Made by a program: the position numbers and the translations under genes. Positions 45,365 through 64,000 of a stretch of 64,000 nt of DNA are shown one piece after another (positions within the stretch are counted from its first letter, which is position 1; every line of letters begins with the position of its first letter). Source of the DNA: a virus; IMG/VR virus record IMGVR_UViG_3300024492_000057, positions 3,798-67,797 of that record, one strand, 5' to 3'. The notes beneath the pieces were generated by a model. That model was not told the DNA's origin and searched no databases. It worked only from the letters and a program-made list of their open reading frames with translations.

Positions 45365-45394
45365 AAAAAGAAAGGGGAGCCCGAAAGCTCCCCC
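45365..45394 (-). terminator. rho-independent terminator after major capsid gene
   Basis: GGGGAGCT-TTCG-GGCTCCCC then TTTCTTTTT. Confidence 0.9.
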
Positions 45395-53924: not shown

Positions 53925-54142
53925 TATTCTTTAGATTTCTTAGATTTAGAAGACTTAATAGGCTCTTCAGTTTTTACAATAGAAACTGGAGGTTGTTTTA
54001 ATTCATTTAGGCGTTTAACCCAAAATTCAAATAAACGAAAGAAGGCGAGCGCTTCCTCGCCTTCCATCTCGAACTTACCCCGGCGCAATAGCTTAAGCGT
54101 ATTTTCAATAGCAACGATTTCAGGGTTAAGTTGTTTATTCAT
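53924..54142 (-). CDS. hypothetical protein
   Basis: coupled ORF. Confidence 0.6.
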   Translation of the reverse strand: MNKQLNPEIVAIENTLKLLRRGKFEMEGEEALAFFRLFEFWVKRLNELKQPPVSIVKTEEPIKSSKSKKSKE

Positions 54143-60755: not shown

Positions 60756-60859
60756 ACGACCTCTAAGTGTTTAATATAATTGCTGAAGTTGTAAATCGTG
60801 ATGACCTTATTGTAATTGCCTTAATGCGGCTGTGTCCGTTGATTTAACTCTTCAAATAC

Positions 60860-60868
60860 AGTTGTTAA
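60860..60868 (-). promoter_or_regulatory. late promoter motif TTAACAACT with ~100-nt leader
   Basis: heads terminase/portal operon. Confidence 0.75.
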
Positions 60869-62286: not shown

Positions 62287-62705
62287 AGCTTACCCATAAA
62301 TTTAAGGATACAAACACAGGTACAATAAGCAGGATTAGAGCCTTTATATTCGGCGCAATTACCCCAATCCCCGTAGGCAGCCCTCCAAGTACCATCCTCT
62401 AAAGACAATACATACGTCTGTTGATTGCGTTCGGCTATACGCCGAGCCGCATAAAGCGCTAGATTCACATCTTCACAGTAGTTATCCGGGGTAGATGATG
62501 TAATAGTATACAAATGACGTTCATAGTCAGGAATAGCATTTAATAGATCTTGAGCATCATTATAAGATAACCCAGATTCTACAATACGAAACTCACAACG
62601 AAAGTCGTATCTTTTCTCTTCACCGAGAATTGACTCAATCTTCTTATTTATATCTTTATGATTTAACATAACATCCACTATAACACACCTATAAACATAA
62701 GTCAA
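62283..62705 (-). CDS. hypothetical protein
   Basis: coupled ORF. Confidence 0.6.
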   Translation of the reverse strand: MTYVYRCVIVDVMLNHKDINKKIESILGEEKRYDFRCEFRIVESGLSYNDAQDLLNAIPDYERHLYTITSSTPDNYCEDVNLALYAARRIAERNQQTYVLSLEDGTWRAAYGDWGNCAEYKGSNPAYCTCVCILKFMGKL

Positions 62706-63274
62706 CGAGATTCTCTAAATCGTATTAACTTATAACCCTTAGTCTTATGATATACCTTTGTAAGCTCATTATCACAATATCGAAGCGCATTAACCTGACC
62801 GGGGTATGTCTTACTCAACCACTCATCAGCTTCAATCATATTATCAAATATACCAACTACAATAGCCCCAATAGACGTACATTTTATCGTAACATACACC
62901 AGGGGCATACGTCTAAGAAGATCGCGGTAATCAGCCATTATAGTCTTATAAACCTTATATTGTATGTTGTTATATTTACCGGTCATATCAAGATAACTAG
63001 TTTGTTGAAATAGAAGAACAGCATCAGCTCGAATGGTTATATCAGATTGAGGGGAATCGTACATCTTAAGTACTTCTAAAGATAGTGCATTCCGGTTATA
63101 AGCATTCTGTAATAACTTATTGGAATGTATACCTCTACGTAAATCAGTTACAATTAGGGCTAATTGATCTATTGCATTACCATTAGACCAATGGAGGGAT
63201 GCATTATTTAAGTCATCTTTAATGACATATATACAATATAAGGGGAATTCTAATAGGTTATTTAATAAAGGCAT
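62702..63274 (-). CDS. degenerate GIY-YIG-like protein
   Basis: CIYVIK and LRRGIHSNKLLQNAYN..LSLEVL resemble Seg/I-TevI-type domains, but YIG and the catalytic Arg are not seen. Confidence 0.55.
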   Translation of the reverse strand: MPLLNNLLEFPLYCIYVIKDDLNNASLHWSNGNAIDQLALIVTDLRRGIHSNKLLQNAYNRNALSLEVLKMYDSPQSDITIRADAVLLFQQTSYLDMTGKYNNIQYKVYKTIMADYRDLLRRMPLVYVTIKCTSIGAIVVGIFDNMIEADEWLSKTYPGQVNALRYCDNELTKVYHKTKGYKLIRFRESR

Positions 63275-63660
63275 AGCTCTAGCGAGGCTTCGTCATACGA
63301 TCCTCTGAAAGTATGGTACATACTTGTTCTAATACAGCATTAAGGCAGCGAAAGCGATAGCCGTATGCGGTACATACTCAATTACAAGACGAAGCAACTT
63401 TATATCAGTCTAACGCATTTTCAAAAAAAATACAAGACTAACTCAAGAATTACTTCATCAACTAAACTCAGTCGTAAAGTCTGACTGGTAAACTCAGGGT
63501 ACATAGCTTTTCCCTTATTAAGGGTAGGTAGTATAACCTTTATGGATTCTTCGTAATCCTTGCTATCCCTGCTGTCGAAAGCCTCGCTCATAGTTGCCAA
63601 ACACTAATACTAACGACAGGTCTTATTCAGAGAGTATCCGGTTGAGACAGACTCTCATCA
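63275..63660 (-). ncRNA. candidate large structured RNA / leader
   Basis: no long ORF, late motif at 5' end, many helices, G-U pairs favour the - strand. Confidence 0.6.
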
Positions 63661-63665
63661 ATTAG

Positions 63666-63674
63666 AGTTGTTAA
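63666..63674 (-). promoter_or_regulatory. late promoter motif TTAACAACT
   Basis: recurrent motif, followed by non-coding sequence. Confidence 0.72.
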
Positions 63675-63757
63675 ATTCTGAACAAAATACAAGTAAAAAA
63701 TGAAAGAATTTTCTGTATTGTTATCAATAATATACAAATAGAGTAATATAATTACCT

Positions 63758-63817
63758 CGTTTCTAGGTTGTTATAATTCTCTAATAATTATAAAGGGTTA
63801 TAAATACGTTTCTAGGT
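63758..63817. repeat. 11-bp direct repeat CGTTTCTAGGT flanking AT-rich TTATAA sites
   Basis: copies at 63758-63768 and 63807-63817. Confidence 0.7.
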
Positions 63818-64000
63818 AGTAAGGAAAAGTCAAATTTGTGAGTGATATTAGCAATTTGCAAGTGCATGTCAGAGGTATGCCCCCCCCCCCTACGTTGTCA
63901 GCGTCATTCTCGCTGTCTCTGATCAGCGTCTCTATGGTGTGAGATATCTCTCATCTACGCTATCTCTCATCATCCTTCTCTCTTCTCTGTCTCTCTCAGC

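Follow-up and report, generated by a model that had tools for sequence, protein, structure and literature searches.

What occupies the gap between the two divergent gene arms of this viral genome, and does the minus strand at the head of one arm carry a functional RNA, the leader of a transcription unit or mere spacer? The DNA analysed, hereafter the window, is a stretch of 64,000 nucleotides (nt) comprising bases 3798-67797 of a linear 67.8-kb IMG/VR virus record (IMGVR_UViG_3300024492_000057) with a completeness rating of 76%; the contig end coincides with the right end of the window. An earlier note, made by reading the sequence, had singled out 63272-63674 as a highly structured RNA of unfamiliar class lying behind a late promoter. 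We are highly confident that this element, termed RNA-A, is a real, expressed and structured RNA. Found from sequence alone, it has sharply bounded transcripts in nature, helices that covary and a loop pairing that can be tested. The features on which the argument draws are these.

63666 to 63674, minus strand: TTAACAACT, a late-type promoter-like motif followed by an AT-rich hexamer, picked out by a count of exact copies and by its recurrence in relatives.
63630 to 63656, minus strand: hairpin P1, in which GAGAGU 63656-63651 pairs with ACUCUC 63635-63630, with an apical stem UCUG/CGGA and a 7-nt loop UCUCAAC at 63647-63641.
63572 to 63619, minus strand: stem P2, CUGUCG 63619-63614 with CGACAG 63577-63572, from RNAalifold and an energy test.
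63579 to 63588, minus strand: the 5′ strand of a long-range helix, within a block of 13 nt that the window and the related phage contig L002 share without a difference.
63496 to 63570, minus strand: stem P3, AGGGAUAGC 63570-63562 with GCUAUGUACCCU 63507-63496, closing a junction of three hairpins, from RNAalifold on the window and L002.
63469 to 63487, minus strand: hairpin P4, CAGUC 63487-63483 with GACUG 63473-63469, from sequence reading.
63442 to 63462, minus strand: the partner site of the P1 loop, with the homologous GUUGA at 63462-63458 and a second element, UUGAG, at 63446-63442.
63423 to 63430, minus strand: the U8 tract (63430-63423), a U-run of at least seven being conserved in six of seven homologues.
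63277 to 63422, minus strand: the 3′ domain, with conserved CCG-loop-CGG and GGC...GCC hairpins, from homologue comparison and RNAalifold.
63277 to 63648, minus strand: the extent of RNA in metatranscriptome contigs, 361-372 nt (1689/1690 to 2050-2060 of the contig L024, in all four RNA runs).

Read on the minus strand, every helix described in the earlier note, together with the U8 tract, the 10-base-pair (bp) long-range helix and three copies of UAUGUACC, lies where it had been placed. The letters TATGTACC occur three times in the 64-kb window, on each occasion on the minus strand and within 63315-63505. The count alone is not significant because 1.5 copies are expected over the whole window, and it is the clustering that is notable. 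The minus strand folds with a predicted energy of -117.6 kcal/mol and a z-score of -3.81, a value equalled by none of 100 shuffled sequences. The corresponding z for the plus strand is -0.97 and 18 of 100 shuffles do as well. The shuffle test thus bears out the description of a highly structured RNA.

Is the RNA made in nature? The stretch is present in fourteen river metagenome DNA runs, and six metatranscriptome runs contain 25-36% of the words of 62300-64000. Four RNA runs were compared with L024, a twin of the window (99.9% identity) that extends 1336 nt past it (window position = 65337 minus L024 position). A single contig in each run covers the window from 63648/7 to 63287-63277, with depths of 11, 20, 14.4 and 10.1. 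The 5′ limit agrees within one base in all four runs and the 3′ limit is spread over 10 nt; the RNA starts at most 18 nt after TTAACAACT and ends 3-13 nt before the first ATG. The earlier note had proposed a phage non-coding RNA (ncRNA), possibly in short and long forms. A transcript exists, and it corresponds to the long form: the contigs start at the first hairpin and extend slightly beyond the 3′ strand of the long-range helix. RNA contigs are lacking on L024 1007-1688, the 680 nt upstream, or on L024 1-309, and past 63277 there are separate pieces only, with depths of 3.1-3.5. These silent flanks argue against carry-over of DNA, the uncovered parts serving as contrast only and not as proof of silence. 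Strand is not given by the contigs. On the 5′ side the contigs begin with the first base of the P1 loop: either a few 5′ bases dropped out during library preparation, or the 5′ strand of P1 is not part of the mature RNA. In the latter case the former loop would be a free 5′ end that can pair with GUUGA.

Homologues were gathered from terminase-anchored loci and by two DNA-pattern scans. The homologue search that the earlier note had recommended produced seven distinct versions in related uncultured phages, those of the window, L002, L022, L008, L005, L026 and L027. L008 is identical to L025 and L028, whilst L005 is identical or 99.8-99.9% identical to L006, L021 and L023. All seven carry TTAACAACT, then 14-24 nt, then a 15-nt core, UCUGUCUCAAYCGGA, which is invariant but for the one C/U. 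Only L002 can be aligned to the window over its whole length (66% identity over 384 nt), with conserved and variable blocks in alternation. L005 and L027 finish about 35 nt past the U-run; the other five (window, L002, L022, L026 and L008) add a 3′ domain of 150-200 nt. The z values of the sense strand in the seven homologues are -3.5, -3.0, -3.6, -5.2, -1.4, -2.8 and -3.3, and the antisense strand gives a weaker value in six of the seven, the exception being L002.

Wider scans added no further versions. The 190-residue protein encoded next to RNA-A gave 16 pattern matches in viral contigs, none a relative, and a loose pattern of promoter plus loop gave at least 119 stretches in the same contigs, of which only the L005 contig is a family member; the loci numbered from L029 upward, which are matches to this loose pattern, are without BLAST or motif support. 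A promoter plus loop-type pattern run over 185,579 species genomes returned six stretches, none related. The 16-mer of the L005-type core gave 56 stretches, the true ones being only L016 and L006, contigs already known; among the other 54, about 30 have in common a single conserved sequence that is unrelated, as judged from their flanks. The pattern for the 3′ domain found four stretches, the L002 contig and three identical high-GC chance matches, and the exact P1 16-mer found seven in viral contigs, three true and four due to chance. In L011-L013, whose terminases are 40-47% identical, the corresponding spacer has no detectable similarity to RNA-A.

Several RNA-A helices carry compensatory changes across the related phages. 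RNAalifold applied to the window and L002 gives 66 pairs that are 100% paired, 16 of them with change on both sides; when the partners are slid by 1-3 columns as a control, 33-49% are paired with 0-4 two-sided changes. The two-sided changes involve five of eight pairs in P3, including a replacement of GGG/CCC by AAA/UUU, and three of eight in P2. For L005, L027 and L026 the consensus has 49 pairs, 92.5% paired, with 11 two-sided changes (nine by another rule) as opposed to 0-4 in slid controls. Here five of seven pairs in the P2-equivalent helix have changed on both sides, as have three of seven in the hairpin that follows a conserved CGAAYGAAA block. The MAFFT alignments of all seven were structurally inconsistent, and helices across the full set rest on sequence reading, a count of loop complements and energy tests.

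The apical stem and loop of P1 lie within the 15-nt core. The sequence of the lower stem varies between homologues, and its energy compared with shuffles gives a Fisher p of 2.9e-4 over seven sequences (individual p 0.001-0.45). The same test for P2, which encloses an inner hairpin and the conserved block bearing the 5′ strand of the long-range helix, gives 5.7e-4 over the seven sequences, most of them individually weak. The first hairpin of the P3 junction has a conserved ACGAAG(A) loop, and from the sequences L022 appears to keep the P3 topology with different stems. Reading of the sequences likewise gives counterparts of P4, CAGUU/AACUG in L002 and UCAUC/GAUGA in L022. An alternative hairpin shares the GACUG of P4 and competes with it, and RNAalifold picked the alternative.

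What might the invariant P1 loop bind? It reads UCUCAAC in five sequences and UCUCAAU in two, and an exact complement of CUCAAY is found 4-33 nt before the U-run in six of the seven homologues. Loops ending in C have the complement GUUGAG, whilst L022 and L008, with a final U in the loop, have AUUGAG, so that the variable pair is C-G in four homologues and U-A in these two. This pair is matched in all seven and the full 6-mer in six; in the window there are only 5-bp versions. In L005, L027 and L026 a 9-bp stem is followed directly by U7-9 and looks like a terminator. The RUUGAG strand is the 3′ half of the 9-bp stem in the short forms, and the loop pairing and the stem are mutually exclusive because both use this strand. 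RUUGAG can pair with the P1 loop or with the GACUUAGCU strand, one at a time. The A of AUUGAG in L008 appears, by reading, to face a C in the 9-bp stem, which favours the loop pairing there. The alignment of the window with L002 also predicts that UCUUGU, just 5′ of the U8 tract, pairs with AUAAGA after P1; being invariant, this helix carries no covariation.

Does RNA-A belong to a known family or encode a protein? The 4227 models of Rfam 15, among them those for tmRNA, RNase P and 6S RNA, gave no match at gathering scores anywhere in the window, consistent with the impression in the earlier note that the RNA was of no known class. At E≤10 the region 63100-64000 yields five chance-level matches only (6.5-18 bits as opposed to cut-offs of 40-100). 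A search over the RNA in L024, L002, L022, L026 and L027 matched nothing, the sole match being a transfer RNA (tRNA) elsewhere in L002, and L024 1-2100 gave nothing relevant at E≤5. There is no match to group I or group II introns or to self-cleaving ribozymes even at E≤10, none to known riboswitch aptamers (Rfam 15 over the window; E≤10 in 63100-64000) and none to the packaging RNA (pRNA) model of phi29 type in the window. The group I intron remnant that the earlier note had named as a possible refuting match was looked for at E≤10 and not found; such an origin was rejected since there is no core match, the flanks are a promoter region and separate open reading frames (ORFs), and L002 has the RNA and no nuclease ORF. 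A hammerhead ribozyme was likewise rejected: hammerhead-like letters near the start of P1 are present in the window only and have no Rfam match. A description of RNA-A was sought in Rfam 15 and in full-text literature without supplementary files and none was found, which is not proof that it is unpublished. An internal ORF at 63421-63600 could encode 59 residues (56 from an ATG). It has no Pfam match; in L002 it is interrupted (alignment reading) by an indel of 1 nt, which is followed by a stop 10 codons downstream of the shared ATG, and the other homologues have no ORF of at least 40 residues at the homologous place.

The long-range helix and the gene behind the RNA should be considered together.

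62702 to 63274, minus strand: the first ORF after the RNA, 190 residues, with no Pfam or PHROG family and a weak GIY-YIG lead.

In the 10-bp helix, AGCGAGGCUU at 63588-63579 pairs with AAGCCUCGCU at 63290-63281, ending 6 nt before the ATG at 63274. The helix noted earlier is present, with a mean pair probability of 0.88 when the window sequence is folded by itself. L002 does not preserve it: the aligned 3′ partner there folds on itself as a hairpin, and for the conserved 5′ block the prediction is pairing with the 3′ domain. An analogous tie of 17 bp, of different sequence, joins the P2 region of L026 to the 10 nt before its ATG. The GIY-YIG lead for the 190-residue ORF comes from language-model atlas scores of 0.88-0.89, below the 0.9 line. 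In L005 the ORF in this place (L005:3117-3713) is nuclease-like, of the DUF559 family (28.3 bits with a cut-off of 20.6); L026 and L027 likewise have a DUF559-like ORF, by BLAST likeness of the downstream DNA. L002 is without a nuclease-like ORF and its next ORF resembles the second one of the window, as read from the sequences. Since unrelated nuclease families, or none, follow the same RNA, the RNA is the resident and the nuclease-like genes look like insertions. The slot behind the RNA looks like an insertion hot spot for homing endonucleases, and the ties before the ATG look like local devices that mask the ribosome site of the insert.

How good is the case for a late promoter? The window has eight exact copies of TTAACAACT. 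The minus strand has seven of them, at distances of 8-392 nt upstream of ORFs of the structural arm; the remaining copy precedes a plus-strand ORF close to the gene for the head protease. Of 14 related loci examined, 12 have the motif before late genes, and L011 and L013 lack it. It is a good candidate for a late promoter element. The earlier note's late promoter survives as a candidate, a repeated motif at 63674-63666, ahead of late ORFs and promoter-like by sequence. Further upstream is a control region.

63816 to 63807 and 63767 to 63758, minus strand: two CCTAGAAACG repeats, overlapping sigma-70-like hexamer matches.

The two copies are 49 nt apart and have no RNA cover in the four metatranscriptome runs. 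Similar TAGAAAC repeats can be read in the same place in L005, L008, L022 and L027. Upstream of the promoter region are a G10 run (63881-63890) and a GA-rich tract (63940-64000), and relatives have a G-rich GGGG(G)TAGGT element in a place similar to that of the G10 run. Contigs end upstream of the promoter motif at 128-239 nt in L002, L006/L023, L022 and L027, and at 326 nt in the window; these ends could represent an assembly break point or a physical genome end. Elsewhere in the arm, the TTAACAACT copy at 60860 (60800-60868) is followed by a short conserved leader, CAACGGACACAGCCG, ahead of a 93-residue ORF. This leader recurs behind the promoter motif in L007, L008 and L026 and may be another small conserved leader element. 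Strong hairpins resembling intrinsic terminators are found on the minus strand after two ORFs for major-head-like proteins, at 45373-45394 and 54040-54065, the former with a TTAACAACT copy directly after it (45346-45338).

The source is an uncultured freshwater tailed phage. Plus-strand ORFs from 545 to 25.8 kb include those for ribonucleotide reductase, primase-helicase, DNA polymerase and head protease, and minus-strand ORFs from 63274 down to 26 kb those for the large terminase, portal, a major-head-like protein and tail proteins. The two arms meet at about 25.8 kb and part at the region under study. The structural-gene arm is some 37 kb long, and the sign of the GC skew flips between the arms. 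The large terminase is of the T4 type, with 26.5% identity to that of the best cultured relative (tblastn), and a DNA search of the INPHARED phages gave no match. There is no tRNA gene in the window. L002 has one at L002:1283-1354 (69.1 bits), placed among the small ORFs that separate the RNA from the terminase.

The arms are separated by 1.9 kb devoid of any ORF longer than 98 residues (L024 1-2062), and this region carries two divergent structured RNAs, one heading each arm. The second is represented by a contig of about 690 nt at L024 310-1006, beyond the right end of the window (equivalent to window 'positions' 64331-65027), in the same four runs at depths of 48-73, with Illumina adapter letters joined at both contig ends. 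Its best fold is on the strand opposite to RNA-A, with z of -4.08 as opposed to -2.26 (20 shuffles). The adapters always have one orientation, which fits the divergent strand provided that the libraries were prepared by the usual stranded protocol. Conserved blocks occur in L008, L005 and L026, and there is no Rfam match in L024. Behind this RNA the sequence reads as a hairpin, a GAGGAG ribosome site and a small ORF. A sigma-54-like motif, TGGCAC-N5-YWGCA at L024:1040-1056, minus strand, is conserved in L005, L008 and L026. It precedes the 5′ end of the 690-nt contig by about 45 nt and may be either a promoter or part of the RNA.

What, then, would RNA-A do? We propose that its transcription starts at the first TTAACAACT late-type promoter, where the structural-gene arm begins, and that it may serve the late transcription unit as a cis-acting leader, with an effect on transcription or translation. 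The 5′ domain would fold while emerging from the polymerase. In short-form relatives the P1 loop would then compete for the RUUGAG strand against the platform of stem and U-run, and the outcome could set the number of polymerases reading into the late genes, by the logic of an attenuator or antiterminator. In long-form phages the 3′ end of the leader would pair onto the P2 region beside the start codon of the inserted nuclease-like ORF and damp its translation. Once the messenger RNA decays or is cut off, the folded leader might persist as a stable species. The cis-acting mechanism by itself is offered tentatively; the whole statement, of a discrete, stable, folded ncRNA of some 372-385 nt on the minus strand together with the cis-leader mechanism, falls only a little short of what we would call probable.

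A number of points weigh against this proposal. The cis model draws on position and on alternative pairings that were chosen by eye and with RNAalifold, and the 9-bp stem has no covariation support because it never varies on both sides. No terminator-like site was found in 63100-64000 and the metatranscriptome contigs pass through the U8 tract, which appears not to be a terminator in the window's phage; the attenuator platform is for these reasons seen only in the L005/L026/L027 type. The late arm bears at least seven further copies of TTAACAACT and has only two strong intergenic terminators, and since both are near a copy of the motif a processive antiterminator is not obviously needed. The conserved structure exceeds the needs of known antitermination leaders, and a trans-acting RNA therefore fits equally well. 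As to the structure itself, the antisense strand likewise folds well in three of the seven homologues, and the contrast with slid controls is inflated because the structures derive from the same alignments as were counted. The mature RNA may lack the 5′ strand of P1, as the contigs begin at 63648/7. The downstream gene has a contig depth about 3-fold to 6-fold below that of RNA-A, a figure that cannot rank genes because the records are contigs with depth flat by construction. In addition the four runs represent one habitat and period and may be one campaign.

Several other explanations deserve to be weighed. RNA-A might act in trans as a stable phage RNA that is released from the transcript, maybe processed at both ends, either as a free molecule or in a ribonucleoprotein particle (RNP), for instance as decoy or scaffold for a protein of the host or the phage, possibly with the divergent 690-nt RNA. 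We regard this as possible, if on balance rather unlikely. A discrete species with sharp limits and a contig depth above that of the following ORF, a multi-domain structure conserved with covariation, and a downstream gene that varies or is lacking among relatives would all be expected of such a molecule; the 5′ end at the base of the P1 loop may mean processing, a second conserved and abundant structured RNA adjoins, and GOLLD and ROOL provide examples of large structured phage RNAs without a known cis role. Against this, there is no known partner, complementarity to the window or to the upstream 1.7 kb is at chance level (the longest exact match is 12 nt, E about 1), and the position between the candidate late promoter and the first late ORF is that of a leader. 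That the 1.9-kb ORF-free region is a replication origin, with transcripts that prime or activate replication, is improbable. Its location at the divergence point of the arms, where the GC skew changes sign, its length without an ORF above 98 residues in L024 1-2062, and the repeats and G10 run nearby are what an origin might show, but gene orientation explains the skew equally, a primer needs neither covarying helices with G-U pairs nor a stable discrete product, and iteron arrays did not turn up, the only repeat checked being the two-copy CCTAGAAACG, with no repeat scan made.

A mobile-element origin, with RNA-A as a remnant or a component of an element to which the nuclease-like ORF belongs (a decayed intron, say, or a ribozyme in the service of a homing endonuclease gene), is highly improbable. 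The ORF behind the RNA is endonuclease-like in most relatives (DUF559 in L005, the weak GIY-YIG lead in the window) and the RNA runs right up to the start codon. However no intron or self-cleaving ribozyme family matches at E≤10, L002 keeps the RNA without a nuclease-like ORF, two unrelated nuclease families stand behind the same RNA, and flanking exons are missing. We can give hardly any credence to a small protein gene, the 59-residue ORF at 63421-63600 inside the RNA, or to an AT-rich spacer with chance structure: the frame is broken after 10 codons in L002, is absent in other homologues and has no Pfam match, whilst the blocks of conservation match helices and loops, with compensatory changes.

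To our knowledge few structured phage RNAs longer than 300 nt have been described, and almost none with evidence of natural expression. If RNA-A, acting in cis, controls read-through into the 37-kb late arm, it would represent a large RNA-based control of elongation or attenuation in an uncultured freshwater clade; if it acts in trans, it would be a new stable phage RNA with a partner yet to be found. In either case the locus marks a hot spot for the insertion of different homing-endonuclease-like genes, and its neighbour is a still larger unexplained RNA. It is distinctly doubtful that the two RNAs form a clade-specific pair, which would either redirect the host polymerase to the early and late arms as RNA-only or RNA-led switches, or assemble into a phage RNP. 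Were this true, the pair would constitute a new class of phage regulatory RNA, with neither sequence nor architecture related to put, conAn2, EAR, GOLLD or ROOL.

How does RNA-A compare with known systems? The late leader of phage lambda runs from PR′ to tR′, the '6S' transcript, and is read through with Q. 6S is a short, abundant late-promoter RNA that ends before the late genes, and read-through gives the late messenger RNA. It is not known to need a conserved fold, and a canonical terminator marks its end, whereas the window has no terminator-like site and the fold of RNA-A is conserved with covariation. GOLLD and ROOL are large, ornate, conserved RNAs of phages and prophages in environmental data, without known cis target, and are in Rfam. 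Neither model matches the window or L024; RNA-A is smaller and stands in the position of a leader directly behind a late-type promoter.

Closer in position are the RNAs that act on the polymerase which makes them. The putL and putR RNAs of HK022 are phage RNAs that act in cis after the promoters of two divergent arms; they fold on emergence, bind RNA polymerase and suppress pausing and termination (PMC9378689). The window's phage too has one structured RNA heading each divergent arm. The put RNAs are about 70 nt in length with two stem-loops and the copies are alike, whilst RNA-A has about 375 nt, at least five helices and a long-range loop pairing, and so departs from the put design of paired copies of about 70 nt with two stem-loops. 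The put copies resemble each other, unlike RNA-A and its 690-nt neighbour, between which no likeness was noticed by eye, no alignment having been made.

The portion of PMC8191782 drawn on here names three RNA-based antitermination systems only, put, EAR and conAn2. The last (conAn of pLS20) is described there as a leader region of 260-600 bp heading a very long operon, with essential stem-loops, acting only in cis on the polymerase and having inverted repeats near both ends (PMC8191782). conAn2 differs in that it follows and needs a protein gene, conAn1, belongs to plasmids of Gram-positive bacteria and has no sequence likeness to RNA-A; no conAn1-like gene precedes RNA-A, there being no ORF between the motif and the RNA and none longer than 98 residues in the 2 kb upstream. 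The two are alike in size range and in standing at the head of a long unit, here the arm of about 37 kb, and the 5′ and 3′ parts of RNA-A pair. With about 375 nt from the motif to the first ORF, RNA-A is an ncRNA leader within the 260-600 bp of the conAn2 type at the head of a long operon. At most, then, RNA-A would resemble put and conAn2 in its way of working. We conclude that RNA-A is a new RNA family of a known broad kind, the structured leaders or ncRNAs of phages and mobile elements.

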